A DNA stretch of 64,000 nt, taken from sequence record PZ445536.1; one strand, 5' to 3'. Position 1 is the stretch's first letter; the number at the start of each line of letters is the position of its first letter. Positions 51,557-61,737 of the stretch are shown here, one piece after another. A model generated the notes under the pieces. The model did no database searches and was not told where the DNA came from. It saw only the letters and a list, made by a program, of their open reading frames with translations. The DNA is from a phage. Made by a program: the position numbers and the translations under genes.

Positions 51557-54500
51557 ATGGCCGAGATTAAAAGAAAGTTCAGAGCAGAAGATGGTCTGGA
51601 CGCAGGTGGCGATAAAATAATCAACGTAGCTTTAGCTGATCGTACCGTAGGAACTGACGGTGTTAACGTTGATTACTTAATTCAAGAAAACACAGTTCAA
51701 CAATACGATCCAACTCGTGGATATTTAAAAGATTTTGTAATCATTTATGATAACCGCTTTTGGGCTGCTATAAATGATATTCCAAAACCGGCAGGAGCTT
51801 TTAATAGCGGACGCTGGAGAGCATTACGTACCGATGCTAACTGGATTACAGTCTCATCTGGTTCATATCAATTAAAATCCGGTGAAGCTATTTCGGTTAA
51901 CACCGCAGCTGGTAATGATATTACATTTACTTTACCATCTTCTCCAATTGATGGTGATACTATCGTTCTCCAAGATATTGGAGGAAAACCTGGAGTTAAC
52001 CAAGTTTTAATTGTAGCTCCGGTGCAAAGTATTGTAAACTTCAGAGGTCAACAAGTACGTTCAGTACTAATGACTCATCCAAAGTCACAGCTAGTTTTAA
52101 TTTTTAGTAATCGTCTGTGGCAAATGTATGTTGCTGATTATAGTAGAGAAGCTGTAGTTATAACACCAGCAAGTCTCTATCAGGCGCAATCTAATGATTT
52201 TATCGTACGTAGATTTACTTCTGCTGCACCAATTAATGTTAAACTTCCAAGATTTGCTAATCATGGCGATATTATTAATTTCGTTGATTTAGATAAACTG
52301 AATCCACTTTATCATACAATTGTTACTACATACGATGAAACGACTTCAGTACAAGAAGTTGGAACTCATTCCATTGAAGGCCGTACATCGATTGACGGTT
52401 TCTTGATGTTTGATGATAATGAGAAATTGTGGAGATTGTTTGACGGTGACAGTAAAGCGCGTTTACGCATTATAACGACTAATTCTAATATTCGTCCAAA
52501 TGAAGAAGTCATGGTATTTGGTGCGAATAACGGAACAACTCAAACAATTGAGCTTCAGCTTCCAACTAATATTTCTGTTGGTGATACTGTTAAAATTTCC
52601 ATGAATTACATGAGAAAAGGACAAACAGTTAAAATCAAAGCTGCCGGTGAAGATAAAATTGCTTCTTCAGTTCAATTGCTGCAATTCCCAAAACGTTCAG
52701 AATATCCGCCTGAAGCTGAATGGGTAACTGTTCAAGAATTAGTTTTTAACGGTGAAACTAATTATGTTCCAGTTTTACAACTTGCTTATATAGAAGATTC
52801 TGATGGAAAATACTGGGTTGTACAACAAAACGTTCCAACCGTAGAAAGAGTAGACTCTTTGAATGATTCTACTAGAGCAAGATTAGGCGTAATTGCTTTA
52901 GCTACACAAGCTCAAGCTAATGTCGATTTAGAAAATTCTCCACAAAAAGAATTAGCAATTACTCCAGAAACATTAGCTAACCGTACTGCTACAGAAACTC
53001 GCAGAGGTATTGCAAGAATAGCAACTACTGCTCAAGTGAATCAGAACACCACATTCTCTTTTGCAGATGACCTTATCATTACTCCTAAAAAGCTGAATGA
53101 AAGAACTGCTACAGAAACTCGCAGAGGTGTTGCTGAAATTGCTACGCAGCAAGAAACTAATGCAGGAACCGATGATACTACAATCATCACTCCTAAAAAG
53201 CTTCAAGCTCGTCAAGGTTCTGAATCATTATCTGGTATTGTAACTTTTGTATCTACCACAGGCGCTACTCCAGCTTCTAGTCGTGAATTAAATGGTACAA
53301 ACGTTTATAATAAAAACACTAATAATTTAGTTGTTTCACCTAAAGCTTTGGATCAGTATAAAGCTACTCCAACGCAGCAAGGTGCAGTAATTTTAGCAGT
53401 TGAAAGTGAAGTAATTGCTGGACAAAGTCAGGAAGGATGGGCAAATGCTGTTGTAACACCAGAAACGTTACATAAAAAGACATCAACTGATGGAAGAATT
53501 GGTTTAATTGAAATTGCTACTCAAAGCGAAGTTAATACAGGAACTGATTATACTCGTGCAGTCACTCCTAAAACTTTAAATGACCGTAGAGCAACTGAAA
53601 GTTTAAGTGGTATAGCTGAAATTGCTACACAAGTTGAATTCGACGCAGGCGTCGACGATACTCGTATCTCTACACCATTAAAAATTAAAACTAGATTTAA
53701 TAGTACTGATCGTACTTCTGTTGTTGCTCTATCTGGATTAGTTGAATCAGGAACTCTCTGGGACCATTATACCCTTAATATTCTTGAAGCAAATGAGACA
53801 CAGCGTGGTACACTTCGTGTAGCTACACAGGTCGAAGCTGCTGCAGGAACATTAGATAATGTTTTAATAACTCCTAAAAAGCTTTTAGGTACTAAATCTA
53901 CCGAATCACAGGAAGGTGTTATTAAAGTTGCAACCCAGTCTGAAACTGTTACTGGAACGTCAGCAAATACTGCTGTATCTCCAAAAAATTTAAAATGGAT
54001 TGTGCAGAGTGAACCTACTTGGGCAGCTACTACTGCGATAAGAGGTTTTGTTAAAACTTCATCTGGTTCAATTACATTCGTTGGTAATGATACAGTTGGT
54101 TCTACACAGAGCTTAGAGCTATACGAGAAAAATAGCTATGCAGTATCACCATATGAATTAAACCGTGTATTAGCAAATTATTTGCCGTTAAAAGCAAAAG
54201 CTGCTGATACAAATTTATTAGATGGTCTAGATTCATCTCAGTTCATTCGTAGGGATATTGCACAGACGGTTAATGGTTCACTAACCTTAACCCAACAAAC
54301 GAATCTGAGTGCCCCTCTTGTATCATCTAGTACTGCTACGTTTGGTGGATCAGTTTCGGCAAATAGTACATTAACTATTTCTAATACTGGAACGGCAACT
54401 CGTCTGATATTTGAGAAAGGACCTCAAACTGGAACGAACCCAGCGCAGACGATGACTATCAGAGTTTGGGGAAATCAGTTTGGTGGTGGATCAGATACAA

Positions 54501-55426
54501 CACGTTCTACTGTATTTGAAGTTGGTGATGAAACATCTAATCACTTTTATTCTCAACGTAATAAAGCTGGTAATATTACGTTTAGCATTAATGGTACTGT
54601 GATGCCAATAAATGTTAACGCTTCCGGTTCATTGAATGCGAATGGCGTTGCAACATTTGGTAGTTCAGTTACTGCTAATGGCGAATTCATCAGCAAGTCT
54701 GCAAATGCTTTTAGAGCAATTAGTGGTGATTACGGATTCTTTATTCGCAATGATGCTGCTACCACATATTTTATGCTCACTGCATCCGGTGATCAGACTG
54801 GCGGATTTAATGGATTACGTCCTTTAGCTATTAATAATGCATCTGGCCAAGTAACGATTGGTGAAAGCTTAATCATTGCCAAAGGTGCTACTATAAATTC
54901 AGATGGTTTGACTGTTAACTCGAGAATTCGTTCTCAGGGTACTAAAACATCTGATTTATATACCCGTGCGCCAACATCTGATACTGTAGGATTCTGGTCA
55001 ATCGATATTAACGATTCAGCCACTTATAACCAGTTCCCGGGTTATTTTAAAATGGTTGAAAAAACTAATGAAGTGACTGGACTTCCATACTTAGAACGTG
55101 GCGAAGAAGTTAAATCTCCTGGTACACTGACACAGTTTGGTAACACACTTGATTCGCTTTACCAAGATTGGATTACTTATCCAACGACACCAGAAGCGCG
55201 TACCACTCGCTGGACACGTACATGGCAGAAAACCAAAAACTCTTGGTCAAGTTTTGTTCAGGTATTTGACGGAGGTAACCCTCCTCAACCATCTGATATC
55301 GGTGCTTTACCATCTGATAATGCTACAATGGGGAATCTTACTATTCGTGATTTCTTACGAATTGGTAATGTTCGCATTATTCCTGACCCAGTGAATAAAA
55401 CGGTTAAATTTGAATGGGTTGAATAA
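51557..55426 (+). CDS. 34: long tail fibre proximal subunit gp34, 1289 aa
   Basis: 1289 aa; internal repeated units of the form ITPKKL..R.ATE...G.AEIAT. Confidence 0.93.
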   Translation: MAEIKRKFRAEDGLDAGGDKIINVALADRTVGTDGVNVDYLIQENTVQQYDPTRGYLKDFVIIYDNRFWAAINDIPKPAGAFNSGRWRALRTDANWITVSSGSYQLKSGEAISVNTAAGNDITFTLPSSPIDGDTIVLQDIGGKPGVNQVLIVAPVQSIVNFRGQQVRSVLMTHPKSQLVLIFSNRLWQMYVADYSREAVVITPASLYQAQSNDFIVRRFTSAAPINVKLPRFANHGDIINFVDLDKLNPLYHTIVTTYDETTSVQEVGTHSIEGRTSIDGFLMFDDNEKLWRLFDGDSKARLRIITTNSNIRPNEEVMVFGANNGTTQTIELQLPTNISVGDTVKISMNYMRKGQTVKIKAAGEDKIASSVQLLQFPKRSEYPPEAEWVTVQELVFNGETNYVPVLQLAYIEDSDGKYWVVQQNVPTVERVDSLNDSTRARLGVIALATQAQANVDLENSPQKELAITPETLANRTATETRRGIARIATTAQVNQNTTFSFADDLIITPKKLNERTATETRRGVAEIATQQETNAGTDDTTIITPKKLQARQGSESLSGIVTFVSTTGATPASSRELNGTNVYNKNTNNLVVSPKALDQYKATPTQQGAVILAVESEVIAGQSQEGWANAVVTPETLHKKTSTDGRIGLIEIATQSEVNTGTDYTRAVTPKTLNDRRATESLSGIAEIATQVEFDAGVDDTRISTPLKIKTRFNSTDRTSVVALSGLVESGTLWDHYTLNILEANETQRGTLRVATQVEAAAGTLDNVLITPKKLLGTKSTESQEGVIKVATQSETVTGTSANTAVSPKNLKWIVQSEPTWAATTAIRGFVKTSSGSITFVGNDTVGSTQSLELYEKNSYAVSPYELNRVLANYLPLKAKAADTNLLDGLDSSQFIRRDIAQTVNGSLTLTQQTNLSAPLVSSSTATFGGSVSANSTLTISNTGTATRLIFEKGPQTGTNPAQTMTIRVWGNQFGGGSDTTRSTVFEVGDETSNHFYSQRNKAGNITFSINGTVMPINVNASGSLNANGVATFGSSVTANGEFISKSANAFRAISGDYGFFIRNDAATTYFMLTASGDQTGGFNGLRPLAINNASGQVTIGESLIIAKGATINSDGLTVNSRIRSQGTKTSDLYTRAPTSDTVGFWSIDINDSATYNQFPGYFKMVEKTNEVTGLPYLERGEEVKSPGTLTQFGNTLDSLYQDWITYPTTPEARTTRWTRTWQKTKNSWSSFVQVFDGGNPPQPSDIGALPSDNATMGNLTIRDFLRIGNVRIIPDPVNKTVKFEWVE

Positions 55427-55434
55427 GAGGTATT

Positions 55435-56550
55435 ATGGAAAAATTTATGGCAGAGTTTGGACAAGGATATGTCCAAACGCCATTTTTATCGGAAAGCAAT
55501 TCAGTAAGATACAAAATAAGTATAGCGGGTTCTTGCCCGCTTTCTACTGCAGGGCCATACGTTAAATTTCAAGATAATCCTGTAGGAAGTCAAACATTTA
55601 GCGCAGGTCTTCATTTAAGAGTTTTTGACCCTTCCACAGGAGCATTAGTTGATAGTAAGTCATATGCTTTTTCGACTTCAAATGATACTACATCAGCTGC
55701 TTTTGTTAGTTTCATGAATTCTTTGACGAATAATCGAATTGTTGCTATATTAACTAGTGGAAAGGTTAATTTTCCTCCTGAAGTAGTATCTTGGTTAAGA
55801 ACCGCCGGAACGTCTGCTTTTCCATCTGATTCTATATTGTCAAGATTCGACGTATCATATGCTGCTTTTTATACTTCTTCTAAAAGAGCTATCGCATTAG
55901 AGCATGTTAAATTAAGTAATAGAAAAAGCACAGATGATTATCAAACTATTTTAGATGTTGTATTTGACAGTTTAGAAGACGTCGGAGCTACCGGGTTTCC
56001 AAGAAGAACGTATGAAAGCGTTGAGCAATTCATGTCAGCGGTTGGTGGAACTAATAACGAAATTGCGCGTCTACCAACTTCAGCTACTATAAGTAAATTA
56101 TCTGATTATAATTTAATTCCTGGCGATGTTCTTTATCTTAAAGCCCAGTTATATGCTGATGCCGATTTACTTGCTCTTGGAACTACGAATATATCCATTC
56201 GATTTTATAATGCATCGAACGGATATATTTCCTCGACACAAGCTGAGTTTACTGGACGGGCTGGGTCTTGGGAATTAAAAGAAGACTATGTAGTTGTTCC
56301 AGAAAACGCTGTAGGATTTACGATATACGCACAAAGAACTGCACAAGCTGGCCAAGGTGGCATGAGGAATTTAAGCTTTTCTGAGGTATCAAGAAATGGC
56401 GGTATTTCAAAACCTGCTGAATTTGGCGTCAATGGTATTCGTGTTAATTATATCTGTGAATCTGCTTCACCTCCGGATATAATGGTACTTCCTACGCAAG
56501 CATCGTCTAAAACTGGTAAAGTGTTTGGGCAAGAATTTAGAGAAGTTTAA
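55435..56550 (+). CDS. 35: long tail fibre hinge (knee) protein gp35, 371 aa
   Basis: 371 aa; GAGG RBS immediately after the gene 34 stop. Confidence 0.88.
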   Translation: MEKFMAEFGQGYVQTPFLSESNSVRYKISIAGSCPLSTAGPYVKFQDNPVGSQTFSAGLHLRVFDPSTGALVDSKSYAFSTSNDTTSAAFVSFMNSLTNNRIVAILTSGKVNFPPEVVSWLRTAGTSAFPSDSILSRFDVSYAAFYTSSKRAIALEHVKLSNRKSTDDYQTILDVVFDSLEDVGATGFPRRTYESVEQFMSAVGGTNNEIARLPTSATISKLSDYNLIPGDVLYLKAQLYADADLLALGTTNISIRFYNASNGYISSTQAEFTGRAGSWELKEDYVVVPENAVGFTIYAQRTAQAGQGGMRNLSFSEVSRNGGISKPAEFGVNGIRVNYICESASPPDIMVLPTQASSKTGKVFGQEFREV

Positions 56551-56612: not shown

Positions 56613-57278
56613 ATGGCTGATTTAAAAGTAGGTTCAACAACTGGAGGCTCTGTCATTTGGCATCAAGGAAATTTTCCATTGAATCCAGCCGGTGACGATG
56701 TACTCTATAAATCATTTAAAATATATTCAGAATATAACAAACCACAAGCTGCAGATAACGATTTCGTTTCTAAAGCTAACGGTGGTACTTATGCATCAAA
56801 GGTAACATTTAATGCTGGTGTTCAAGTACCATATGCTATAAACAATACAAACCAAAGTGGTATTTATCCTGGTAATGGAGATGCAGCTACTTTTGTTACA
56901 GCAAATATTGATATTGTTTCATGGTATGGTATTGGTTTTAAATCATCACAGGGTTCAGCAGCCAGAACTGTAGTAATCAATACACGTAATGGTGATATTA
57001 GTACAAAAGGCGTTGTATCCGCTGCAGGTCAAGTAAGAAGTGATGCAGCTGCTCCTATAGCAGCGAATGACCTTACTAGAAAGGACTATGTTGATGGAGC
57101 AATAAATACTGTTACAGCAAATGCAAACTCTAGAGTGTTACGATCTGGTGACACTATGACGGGAAACTTAACCGCACCAAACTTTTTCTCGCAGAATCCT
57201 GCATCTCAACCTTCACATGTTCCACGATTTGACCAAATCGTAATTAAGGATTCTGTTCAAGATTTCGGCTATTATTAA
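56613..57278 (+). CDS. 36: long tail fibre distal connector gp36, 221 aa
   Basis: 221 aa, position between genes 35 and 37. Confidence 0.88.
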
Positions 57279-57286
57279 GAGGACTT

Positions 57287-60200
57287 ATGGCTACTTTAAA
57301 ACAAATACAATTTAAAAGAAGCAAAACCGCAGGTGCACGTCCTGCTGCTTCAGTATTAGCCGAAGGTGAATTGGCTATAAACTTAAAAGATAGAACAATT
57401 TTTACTAAAGATGATTCAGGAAATATCATTGATTTAAGCATTTCCGCTGGCGGTAATATCAGTGGAAATGTAACTATTGATGGAACTTTACGCGTCAATG
57501 GACCAATAAACAATTTTGGAAATTTTTCCACAAGTGGCCAGATTACCGCTGGTAGTAGTATTTCAGCTCAAGTTTTTAGAGCATTGCAAGGTTCGTTTTA
57601 TACAAGAGCATCAAATGATGTCTCAAATGCCCATTTATGGTTTGAAAATGCCGATGGCACTGAACGAGGTGTTATATATGCTCGTCCTCAAACTACAACT
57701 GACGGTGAAATACGCCTTAGGGTTAGACAAGGAACAGGAAGCACCATTAATAGCGAATTCTATTTCCGTTCTATAAACGGCGGTGAATTTCAAGCCAATC
57801 GTATTTTAGCATCAGATTCGTTAGTAACAAAACGCATTGCAGCTGATACAGTTATTCACGGTGGCAAAGCCTTTGGTGTATATGATACGGATTCATTAGT
57901 TAACTACGTATACCCAGGCACCGGTGAAACTAACGGAGTAAACTATCTTCGTAAAGTTCGCGCTAAATCAGGCGGTACCATATGGCATGAGCTTTGTACT
58001 GCTCAATCAGGCCAAGCTGATGAAATGTCTTGGTGGACCGGTTCTACTCCTATTTCAAAACAATTTGGTATTCGTCATGACGGTCGGATGATTGTCCGCA
58101 ATAGTCTTGCATTAGGCACTATGACTACTGATTTTCCATCGAGCGATTATGGTAATGGTGGCGCATTAGGATTCGGTGCTTATTTGGCTCTAGGTGATAA
58201 CGGAACTGGTTTACGCTATCAAAAAACCGGTGTTTATGATTTAGTTGGTTCCGGATTGTCTGTTGCATCTATTACTCCAGATAGTTTCCGTAGTACTCGT
58301 AAAGCATTATTTGGACGTTCAGAAGACCAAGGCACCACATGGATTATGCCTGGAACGAACGCTGCATTTTTATCAGTTCAAACACAGGCTGATGAAAACA
58401 CTGCTGGAGACGGCCAGACGCATATTGGCTATAACTCAGGCGGAAAAATGAACCACTATTTCCGTGGTAAAGGCAAAACTAATATTAATACTCAGGAAGG
58501 TATGGAAGTTAATCCGGGTATTTTGAAATTGGTAACTGGCTCTAATAATGTAATGTTTTATGCTGATGGCGGTATTACATCTGTTAAGCAGCTTTCAATA
58601 TATAATGGCATATATTTAGCAGCTAATAATTCTACTGCTGGGCTAACATTCGCTCCAACTACTACAGTTGATGGTACTAAGCAAATTTTGTGGGAAGGCG
58701 GTACTCGTGCTGGGCAGAATAAAAGCTATGTAACTGTTAAAGCGTGGGGTAATTCATTTAACGCATCTGGCGATCGTTCCCGTGAAACAGTTTTTGAGGT
58801 AGGTGATGGGCAAGGTTACCATTTTTATTCTCAACGTGTAGCTCCTGCGCCTGGTTCGACTGTCGGGCCTATTCAACTCCGAGTTGATGGTGGTTTATTA
58901 ACTTCAGGTAGTATTGTTGCTTCTGGTTCTATTACAACCGAATCTTCTTTGAGTGTTAATAATGGCATGTCAGTAAACGGACAAGCTAAATTCGGTGGAA
59001 CTGCTGATGCATTAAGAATTTGGAATGCCGAATACGGTGCTATTTTCCGTCGCTCAGAAACAGCATTACATATTATCCCGACTCCCAAAGATGCCGGTGA
59101 AAGTGGTGGAATAAGTAATCTCCGCCCACTTAGTATTAGTCTTAATAATGGTATGGTACAAATGCGCCATTCTGTTACGTTAGGCGATGATGGCGCTGGC
59201 GGTAATATGATTACTGTGGACAACGATACCAAACTTGTTGTTGTTACTAGTAATAGTCGCATTTCTCCTAATTACCGTATGCAGGTAGGACAAGCAGCTT
59301 ATATTGATGCTGAATGTACTGACACAGTTCGCCCGGCTGGTGCAGGGTCTTTTGCTTCACAAAATAATGAAAACGTTCGTGCTCCATTCTATATGAATAT
59401 TAATCGCACAGATACAAGTACTTACGTTCCTATTTTGAAACAGCGATATGTCCAAGGAAACAGTTGTTATTCTCTGGGAACTCTAATTAACGGCGGTAAC
59501 TTCAGAGTTCATTATCATGAAGGCGGCGATGGCGGTTCGACTGGCGCTATTATAAAGGATTTAGGTTGGGAATTTACCAAAAATGGTGATTTTATATCTC
59601 CTAAGCGTGTTTCTGCTGGGGGTTCAGTTTATTTAGGTACAGACGGCAATATTACAGGTGGTTCTGGCAATTTTGCTAATTTAAACAGTACAATTGAATC
59701 ACTTAAAACCGATATTGTATCGAGTTACCCAATCGGTGCTCCTATTCCATGGCCAACGGATACTCCTCCTGACGGTTACGCTATTATGGAAGGCCAGACT
59801 TTTGATAAGTCTGCATACCCAAAATTGGCTATGGCTTACCCATCTGGCGTAATTCCAGATATGCGCGGGCAAACTATTAAAGGTAAACCAAGTGGTCGAG
59901 CTGTATTAAGCGCAGAAGCCGATGGTGTTAAGGCTCATAGCCATAGTGCATCGGCTTCAAGTACTGACTTGGGTACTAAAACTACGTCGAGTTTTGATTA
60001 TGGTACTAAGACGACAAGTAGCTTTGACTATGGCACTAAGACTAGCAATACCACAGGTAACCACTCTCATACTGTAAGCGGTACTACGAGTTCTGCTGGT
60101 GCACACCAACATGCGCGCTCAGGTCCTCAGTTACAAGCCGGCATACCCAATAACATATTCTATGACGGATATAATAGTGTAGGTGCAAACGCCAACGCTA

Positions 60201-60481
60201 AAATCACCGGATCTGTGAGCGGTGCTACTGCAGGGTCGAATATAGCCAAAACTTCTTCAGACGGTGCTCATACCCATACTTGGTCTGGTACTACAAGCAC
60301 TACAGGTAACCATGCTCACACAGTAGGTATTGGTGCTCATACCCATACTGTAGGTATCGGTGCTCATACCCACACGGTAGCAATTGGCTCGCATGGTCAT
60401 ACTATCACTGTAAATAGTACAGGTAATACAGAAAACACGGTTAAAAACATCGCTTTTAACTATATCGTTCGTTTAGCATAA
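57287..60481 (+). CDS. 37: long tail fibre distal subunit gp37 (receptor-binding), 1064 aa
   Basis: C-terminus ends [15 protein letters not shown]; His-box repeats ([31 protein letters not shown]); ORF longer than the roughly 1026 aa recalled for T4 gp37. Confidence 0.9.
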
Positions 60482-60484
60482 GGA

Positions 60485-60503
60485 GAGGGGCTTCGGCCCC
60501 TTC
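60485..60503 (+). terminator. hairpin GGGGC-UUCG-GCCCC after gene 37
   Basis: stable tetraloop hairpin between genes 37 and 38, overlapping the gene 38 RBS region. Confidence 0.55.
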
Positions 60504-60508
60504 TGAAT

Positions 60509-61060
60509 ATGAAAATATATCATTATTATTTTGACACTAAAGAATTTTACAAAGAAGAAAATTACAAACCGGTTAAAGGACTCGGTCTTCCTGCTCATTC
60601 AACAATTAAAAAACCTTTAGAACCTAAAGAAGGATACGCAGTTGTATTTGATGAACGTACTCAAGATTGGATTTATGAAGAAGACCATCGCGGCAAACGA
60701 GCATGGACTTTTAATAAAGAAGAAATTTTTATAAGTGACATTGGAAGCCCGGTTGGTATAACCTTTGATGAGCCCGGCGAATTTGATATATGGACTGATG
60801 ACGGTTGGAAAGAAGACGAAACATATAAACGCGTTTTAATTCGCAATAGAAAAATTGAAGAATTATACAAAGAATTCCAAGTTTTAAATAATATGATTGA
60901 AGCTTCTGTCGCGAATAAAAAGGAAAAATTCTATTATAAAAACCTTAAGCGGTTCTTTGCTCTTTTAGAAAAGCATGAGCATTTAGGTGGTGAATTCCCT
61001 TCATGGCCTGAAAAAGAACGGAAACCTTGGTATAAGCGTTTATTCAAGCATTACGTATAA
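60509..61060 (+). CDS. 38: tail fibre assembly chaperone gp38 (T4-type, 183 aa)
   Basis: 183 aa, MKIYHYYFDTKEFYKEENYKPVKG. Confidence 0.88.
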   Translation: MKIYHYYFDTKEFYKEENYKPVKGLGLPAHSTIKKPLEPKEGYAVVFDERTQDWIYEEDHRGKRAWTFNKEEIFISDIGSPVGITFDEPGEFDIWTDDGWKEDETYKRVLIRNRKIEELYKEFQVLNNMIEASVANKKEKFYYKNLKRFFALLEKHEHLGGEFPSWPEKERKPWYKRLFKHYV

Positions 61061-61080: not shown

Positions 61081-61737
61081 ATGGCAGCACCTAGAATATC
61101 ATTTTCGCCCTCTGATATTCTATTTGGTGTTCTAGATCGCTTGTTCAAAGATAACGCTACTGGGAAAGTTCTTGCTTCCCGGGTAGCTGTCGTAATTCTT
61201 TTATTTATGATGGCGATTGTTTGGTATAGGGGAGATAGTTTCTTTGAGTACTATAAGCAATCAAAGTATGAAACATACAGTGAAATTATTGAAAAGGAAA
61301 GAAATGCACGCTTTGAATCTGTCGCCCTGGAACAACTCCAGATAGTTCATATATCATCTGAGGCAGACTTTAGTGCGGTGTATTCTTTCCGCCCTAAAAA
61401 CTTAAACTATTTTGTTGATATTATAGCATACGAAGGAAGATTACCTTCAACAATAACTGAAAAATCACTTGGAGGATATCCTGTTGATAAAACTATGGAT
61501 GAATATATAGTTCATTTAAATGGACGTCATTATTATTCTGACTCAAAATTTGCTTTTTTACCAACTAAAAAGCCTACTCCCGAAATAAACTACATGTACA
61601 GTTGTCCATATTTTAATTTGGATAATATCTATGCTGGAACGATAACCATGTACTGGTATAGAAATGATCATATAAGTAATGACCACCTTGAATCAATATG
61701 CGCTCAGGCGGCCAGAATATTAGGAAGGGCTAAATAA
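61081..61737 (+). CDS. t: holin T, 218 aa
   Basis: 218 aa, single N-terminal TM segment (VAVVILLFMMAIVWY) and large periplasmic domain; AAGGAGGG RBS. Confidence 0.9.
   Translation: MAAPRISFSPSDILFGVLDRLFKDNATGKVLASRVAVVILLFMMAIVWYRGDSFFEYYKQSKYETYSEIIEKERNARFESVALEQLQIVHISSEADFSAVYSFRPKNLNYFVDIIAYEGRLPSTITEKSLGGYPVDKTMDEYIVHLNGRHYYSDSKFAFLPTKKPTPEINYMYSCPYFNLDNIYAGTITMYWYRNDHISNDHLESICAQAARILGRAK

Follow-up and report, generated by a model that had tools for sequence, protein, structure and literature searches.

The distal long tail fiber subunit encoded in the stretch of phage DNA that we analyzed (record PZ445536.1, 64,000 nt; hereafter the window) appears to carry the tip allele of phage TuIb. 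In this reading gp37 ends in a collar, a long metal-binding needle whose extra rung is contributed jointly by an additional repeat on each arm, and a head of the OmpC type, while the synonymous divergence between its tandem repeats would stem from age and mosaicism. We put the probability of this interpretation, which is built from sequence comparison, at roughly 85%. The first-pass annotation had singled out the tip as a variant of interest; by its identity to database records it is instead a known allele, in GenBank since 1990 and common among T-even phages, with a near-identical counterpart in TuIb (X55191) and in more than 20 sequenced T-even genomes.

The gene lies in a fiber locus with the order gp34-35-36-37-38-t, in which gp34, gp35, gp36 and t are 92–99% identical to their T4 counterparts (NC_000866) at the protein level. 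The features of the locus and of the tip are as follows, in window coordinates.

51557..55426, + strand: gp34, T-even long tail fiber cluster
55435..56550, + strand: gp35, T-even long tail fiber cluster
56613..57278, + strand: gp36, T-even long tail fiber cluster
57287..60481, + strand: gp37 (gene 37), distal subunit of the long tail fiber, 1064 aa
59735..59878, + strand: collar domain PF07484, residues 817-864 (Pfam E 2e-11; alignment to 2XGF)
59936..59944, + strand: HxH motif 1 (H884-S-H886), first predicted metal site, ascending; DNA 96-100% identical to T4
59972..60001, + strand: decapeptide unit 1, ascending strand
60002..60031, + strand: decapeptide unit 2, without a T4 counterpart
60032..60061, + strand: degenerate or partial third ten-residue unit, leading into HxH motif 2
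60062..60112, + strand: HxH motifs 2 (H926-S-H928) and 3 (H940-Q-H942), ascending, 14 residues apart
60113..60268, + strand: head cassette (predicted to contact the receptor), residues 943-994, essentially identical to TuIb
60269..60277, + strand: HxH motif 4 (H995-T-H997), first on the descending strand
60311..60418, + strand: His-box array with a 27-nt period, HxH motifs 5 to 8, descending strand
60311..60337, + strand: His box HAHTVGIGA
60338..60364, + strand: His box HTHTVGIGA
60365..60391, + strand: His box HTHTVAIGS
60392..60418, + strand: degenerate fourth His box HGHTITVNS
60419..60478, + strand: conserved C-terminal tail of 20 residues; 96-100% DNA identity to T4 in sliding 30-nt windows
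60509..61060, + strand: gene 38, T4-type fiber assembly chaperone, 183 aa, 99.5% identical to T4 gp38
61081..61737, + strand: holin t

With 1064 codons the gp37 frame is, as had been noted, longer than that of T4, whose gp37 has 1026 residues, and it is open through to the conserved C-terminus. The two proteins are 73% identical overall, yet 50-column blocks of their alignment span 28% to 100% identity, and gp37 of the window is by this measure a mosaic relative to that of T4. Over its full length the gene is closest to that of Shigella phage ESh17 (99.6% in DNA), which is listed with a Shigella host. Since the downstream gene encodes a T4-type gp38 chaperone, the adhesin is the gp37 tip and not a separate gp38 adhesin. 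The Pfam collar domain PF07484 scored 44 bits against a gathering cut-off of 24 and precedes the needle, and the C-terminal query matched the solved T4 tip (PDB 2XGF) at E 2.3e-96 by phmmer (query 37-314, chain 2-242) and at E 2.7e-107 in a profile search. Homology to 2XGF, the collar and the gp38 context together bear out the original identification of this region as the receptor-binding tip of gp37. The Phage tail fibre repeat PF03335 stayed below its curated cut-off on gp37 (17.3 bits against 20, residues 921-934); many homologues of the tip do have a precomputed match to this family.

The 3' end of TuIb gene 37 is 99.3% identical in DNA to window positions 59900-60481, with four differences in 582 nt, and 266 of 267 residues of the protein are the same, the sole difference being L to I. 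By its own description the record comprises a partial gene 37, gene 38 and t of phage TuIb; it contains the two decapeptides in the window's own codons and a matching His-box array, again with gene 38 downstream. Upstream of the tip the likeness ends: the fiber shaft is a mosaic different from that of TuIb. The TuIb sequence goes back to Montag, Hashemolhosseini and Henning 1990 (J Mol Biol 216:327), as cited in PMC9659904 and PMC5221442. Searched with the same 582 nt, at least 60 phage records aligned in one piece at 100% coverage and 116 covered at least 80%; the matching records are spread over Tequatrovirus, Mosigvirus and Gaprivervirus. Over this length, more than 20 T-even phages with sequenced genomes reach 98–100% identity, among them ESh17, ESh18, vB_Eco_Some, KMB23, teqhad, teqdroes and Ozark as well as the BASEL phages AdolfPortmann, FelixPlatter and FriedrichZschokke, and many more, including members of Mosigvirus and Gaprivervirus, lie at 84–96%. 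The arrangement of two decapeptides and three His boxes is also found in AndreasVesalius, PhiZZ30, ECO07P1, DCP80, APCEc01, O157 typing phage 3 and NBG1.

In the T4 tip, solved by Bartual et al. 2010 (2XGF), each chain goes up the needle, makes the head and doubles back, yielding a six-stranded needle (PMC6957217, PMC12609058, PMC9659904). Seven axial irons are coordinated there by di-histidine motifs (PMC6957217), each HxH motif, contributed by all three chains, binding one of them, and needle length has been related to the number of HxH motifs (PMC12609058). A sequence search of the PDB returned this seven-site T4 form as the sole member of the gp37-tip family. Against its seven needle HxH motifs, single FDY decapeptide and three descending His boxes, the window has eight, two and four, respectively; the eight motifs lie on both arms around the variable head with gaps of 42, 14, 55, 14, 9, 9 and 9 residues. 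An equal number of repeats in T4 would have spoken against a length variant, but the alignment gives eight motifs against seven, and its gaps relative to 2XGF fall exactly at one decapeptide, the head and one His-box nonapeptide.

Both repeat arrays could be delimited precisely. Units 1 (GGT ACT AAA ACT ACG TCG AGT TTT GAT TAT) and 2 (GGT ACT AAG ACG ACA AGT AGC TTT GAC TAT) encode the same decapeptide. Substitutions at 8 of 30 nt, spread over 6 of 10 codons, separate the two, and every one is synonymous, including a serine switch from TCG to AGT; Tandem Repeats Finder reports a period of 30 nt, 2.7 copies and 74% matches. The tandem duplication with the positions of its two units, its six recoded codons and the partial third unit had all been described correctly in the first-pass annotation. 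For the His boxes, which the same program resolves into 2.4 copies of a 27-nt period with 86% matches and whose units differ at 5 of 27 nt, the description holds only in part: an array of three units (27 residues, followed by the degenerate HGHTITVNS) is indeed present, but the third copy of the proposed H-x-H-T-V-G-I-G-A is inexact and the first base of the array is 60311 instead of 60310. Its content is two units together spanning 18 residues, one of them absent from T4, then HTHTVAIGS and HGHTITVNS. The annotators of teqhad had labeled the corresponding 27-nt array as a repeat_region in GenBank.

We compared HxH spacing among 73 distinct tips, for which 120 proteins from databases and some 90 fetched loci were the source (the matching phage records numbered 514). 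Two patterns dominate: 32, 14, head, 14, 9, 9 with one decapeptide, and 42, 14, head, 14, 9, 9, 9 with two. Of the 73 tips, 40 combine a first gap of 42 with three 9-residue gaps and another 32 combine a gap of 32 with two of them, such that the pairing is kept in 72/73 (Fisher p 6e-20, a value that ignores shared ancestry), over heads that measure 37 to 56 residues from one bordering HxH motif to the other. Rarer forms have either dropped the 14/14 pair on both arms, leaving six HxH motifs, or added a second such pair to reach ten (P0052). The arithmetic of the HxH spacing and the co-occurrence across tips suggest that the extra decapeptide and the extra HTHTVGIGA are probably the two halves of one additional iron-binding rung, an eighth metal site. 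That the needle is extended had been a reasonable guess from the repeats, and the pairing rule sharpens it into a prediction about both arms. An AlphaFold2 monomer of the C-terminal 279 residues, run with a 30-sequence alignment, was of low confidence (mean pLDDT 48.6, pTM 0.20), as expected for a single chain of an intertwined trimer.

The mechanism we propose follows from this geometry. In an intertwined trimer like that of T4, each HxH of the three chains would octahedrally coordinate one axial iron, so that eight motifs would yield one rung more than in T4; unit 2 in the ascending arm and the second HTHTVGIGA in the descending one would be required jointly to keep the arms in register, and the head held between the arms would be a cassette other than that of T4. 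For fiber engineering, the practical consequence may be that chimeric tips should be joined such that the decapeptide and His-box arms stay balanced.

An alternative is that the insertions on the two arms arose separately, by out-of-register recombination at the conserved motifs, as neutral length variants that are structurally uncoupled and leave the number of metal sites unaffected. Both arrays do border the swapped cassette, Tetart et al. 1996 and 1998 reportedly documented recombination at such motifs as well as, in T4 host-range mutants, duplication of a small domain of the gp37 tip, and one metagenomic contig, L003, uncouples the two numbers by combining two decapeptides with three descending His boxes, an exception which implies that the coupling is not absolute. 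Nevertheless, independent events would be expected neither to leave 72 of 73 distinct tips obeying the pairing over many head lengths nor to produce other length variants that alter both arms together, and we regard this explanation as improbable.

The tip shares its collar, needle and C-terminal sequences with T4 and, beyond the extra repeats, differs between its two arrays. In a codon alignment scanned with sliding windows, the DNA is 96–100% identical to T4 on two flanks, one reaching from approximately the first HxH motif as far as unit 1 and the other from the last His box down to the stop codon; between these flanks the two are unalignable or 13–70% identical. The head segment exceeds that of T4 by 18 residues and is 28% identical in its alignment block. 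The comparison with AndreasVesalius gives the reverse picture, with 100% identity from unit 2 onward and 76–93% upstream. As identity to both phages shifts at the arrays, the repeats, on this alignment, border a swapped cassette, and the conserved motifs that flank it would be the likely recombination junctions. This agrees with the published view that T-even adhesins exchange sequence within conserved motifs or near them (Tetart et al. 1996, 1998, as summarized in PMC3157838).

Which receptor this head recognizes can be approached through its relatives. The classical assignment for TuIb is OmpC. PMC9659904 gives OmpC/LamB for the same phage, and for FelixPlatter (Bas40), whose tip region is 98.5% identical in DNA to the window, dependence on OmpC was shown by knockout and complementation (PMC8594841). 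Because the tip is near-identical to those of TuIb and Bas40, the window head probably binds OmpC, which is also the protein receptor of T4 on K-12; T4 additionally uses E. coli B LPS (PMC5221442). The proposal that specificity is altered relative to T4 thus survives in one respect, in that the head does differ (the block at 28% identity), but not in the protein receptor, which is probably the same OmpC; at most, LPS use or OmpC contacts may differ from those of T4. The Shigella host listed for ESh17, the closest full-length relative, tempers the assignment to OmpC. In practical terms, these comparisons would place the phage's long tail fiber in the OmpC-recognizing TuIb/Bas40 tip type.

We then asked how the codon divergence between the two decapeptide units is best explained. 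The first-pass annotation had proposed selection that keeps the repeat peptide while limiting recombinational collapse; in this view the codons of the decapeptide units, and of the His boxes, would have been driven apart so that deletion by homologous recombination or slippage is prevented. Several observations are consistent with such a force: six of ten codons differ under an identical peptide, the longest exact word that the two units have in common in register is only 8 nt, and loss of a repeat from one arm would probably unbalance the needle, given the pairing. Furthermore, the single unit of T4 resembles unit 1 at its 5' end and unit 2 at its 3' end (AAA ... AGC TTT GAC TAT), a hybrid-like form which suggests that collapse between units does seem to happen, although only two or three sites are informative. 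However, the divergence is no greater than that of random synonymous encoding. Two random encodings drawn from the codon usage of the fiber locus are expected to differ at 5.6 codons and 7.0 nt, against the 6 and 8 observed, and the chance of at least the observed divergence is 0.53 for codons and 0.41 for nucleotides; the units are saturated, not over-dispersed.

The codons themselves also point to inheritance. Unit 1 of the window is nearest to unit 1 of other phages, and unit 2 differs from its counterpart in AndreasVesalius by 1 nt and from that in a distant contig, L008, of approximately 64% protein identity, by 2 nt; AGT/AGC or GGC at the sixth codon of unit 2 recurs in contig L004 and the lambda-like L005. 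As units at the same position in distant genes share codons, the differences between units are old and inherited, and such position-specific codons argue against directed recoding. Moreover, an identical peptide is no rule of the family: in 17 distinct two-unit genes the units are 3 to 13 nt apart, often with 1 to 3 amino-acid differences. The arrays also tolerate long exact repeats, of 26 nt in O157 typing phage 3 (at a 30-nt offset) and 17 nt in DCP80, both in the decapeptide array, and 14 nt at a 27-nt offset in the window's own His-box array. Random-level divergence, inherited codons and tolerated exact repeats leave selection-driven recoding unsupported, and we consider it unlikely; it is unnecessary to account for the divergence, which would follow from the age of the duplication and the history of the mosaic cassette. 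A weak effect of survivorship on unit divergence may nonetheless exist. Also unlikely is a scheme in which needle length changes by whole rungs, each requiring an ascending unit of roughly 10 residues and a descending His box of 9, and an unequal crossover in one array alone gives a misregistered, dead fiber, so that drifted codons would be kept partly by second-order selection against collapse. If so, lineages with synonymously drifted units would be more stable, and the divergence would not come from age alone.

Although short tandem repeats are a classic site of assembly errors, an assembly or sequencing duplication can be rejected outright, as many independent records agree: the units differ (8 of 30 and 5 of 27 nt) and hence cannot stem from a single read pattern that was collapsed or expanded, both teqhad and the TuIb record of 1990 have the same arrangement in the same codons, seven more phages and lambda have the layout, sometimes in other codons, and the frame is intact to the conserved C-terminus.

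The tip assigned here to the TuIb allele has parallels both in phage lambda and in laboratory variants of T4. The C-terminus of the lambda side tail fiber Stf (orf-314) carries eight HxH motifs with gaps of 42, 14, 48, 14, 9, 9 and 9, a long needle like that of the window, and a pair of FDY decapeptides that are 8 of 30 nt apart in DNA; by motif number and spacing, the short form is that of T4, and the window has the form of lambda and TuIb. Tail fiber relatives in E. coli prophages and viral contigs are approximately 62–67% identical in protein to the query. Stf differs from the window in head cassette, receptor, N-terminal fiber and assembly-protein family (PMC9659904).

The T4 host-range mutants that Tetart and colleagues reportedly described in 1996 (J Mol Biol 258:726; cited in PMC3157838) offer a second comparison, since they are reported to carry tandem duplications in the gp37 tip. 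The copy number of short units bounded by His-box motifs changes there, as it does in the window, which shows that this region changes by unequal recombination. The mutants are laboratory duplications of a head-proximal segment that were selected for a new host, whereas in the window the additional repeats are old and fixed in an allele that occurs naturally.

Across the 73 distinct tips compared, needle length changes on both arms together: an extra 30-nt decapeptide unit on the ascending arm (the FDY decapeptide) accompanies one extra 27-nt His box, with its HxH motif, on the descending arm in 72 of them. Other lengths occur in the family, from a 10-HxH database protein (P0052), in which a second 14/14 pair is present on both arms, to six loci with 6-HxH forms (L027, L033, L039, L041, L047 and L080), which are without the 14/14 pair on both arms and have short heads of 34-38 residues. 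The only tip to break the pairing rule is the ORF of a metagenomic locus, L003 (IMGVR_UViG_3300030021_000020), which has two FDY decapeptides and only three descending His boxes, with HxH spacings of 42, 14, 55, 14, 9 and 9. This tip could represent a viable unbalanced needle, or a 27-nt repeat could have collapsed in metagenome assembly.

The FDY array of O157 typing phage 3 (L089, KP869101) contains an exact direct repeat of 26 nt, offset by 30 nt (locus positions 486-541). A relative therefore stably carries decapeptide units whose DNA is nearly identical.

Many E. coli database proteins that have this kind of tip go by names such as 'phage terminase large subunit family protein', 'tape measure protein', 'ClpP-related protease' or 'short-chain fatty acid transporter' (examples of oddly named homologues are P0034, P0044, P0055, P0094, P0099 and P0106), and there are unrelated Pfam domains at the N-terminus of some. 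Both oddities probably arose in prophage regions as artefacts of annotation or gene fusion. The 1990 record of the near-identical TuIb tip (L001, X55191.1) is described as bacteriophage TuIb, but its organism field reads 'Tequatrovirus T4', and a query by organism would not turn it up.

Protein alignment of gp37 (57287-60481) with T4 gp37 revealed strong mosaicism. Identity is 94-98% in columns 1-50, 101-150 and 851-900, 34% in columns 51-100 and 43% in columns 501-550, and each protein has an 11-residue indel relative to the other near columns 501-650.

In the junction of genes 37 and 38 (60480-60511), two elements lie between the stop codon of the first gene and the ATG of the second (60509):

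60480-60485, Shine-Dalgarno-like AAGGAG, 23 nt upstream of the ATG
60484-60504, GC-rich UUCG-loop hairpin, between AAGGAG and the ATG

When folded, a 51-nt stretch containing the hairpin gave a minimum free energy of -15.8 kcal/mol (z -2.6). In T4, a hairpin brings the Shine-Dalgarno sequence of gene 38 near its start codon, and the junction described here looks like that arrangement. T4 has the same junction element with one C fewer, and in phage NBG1 a terminator is annotated at the corresponding position.
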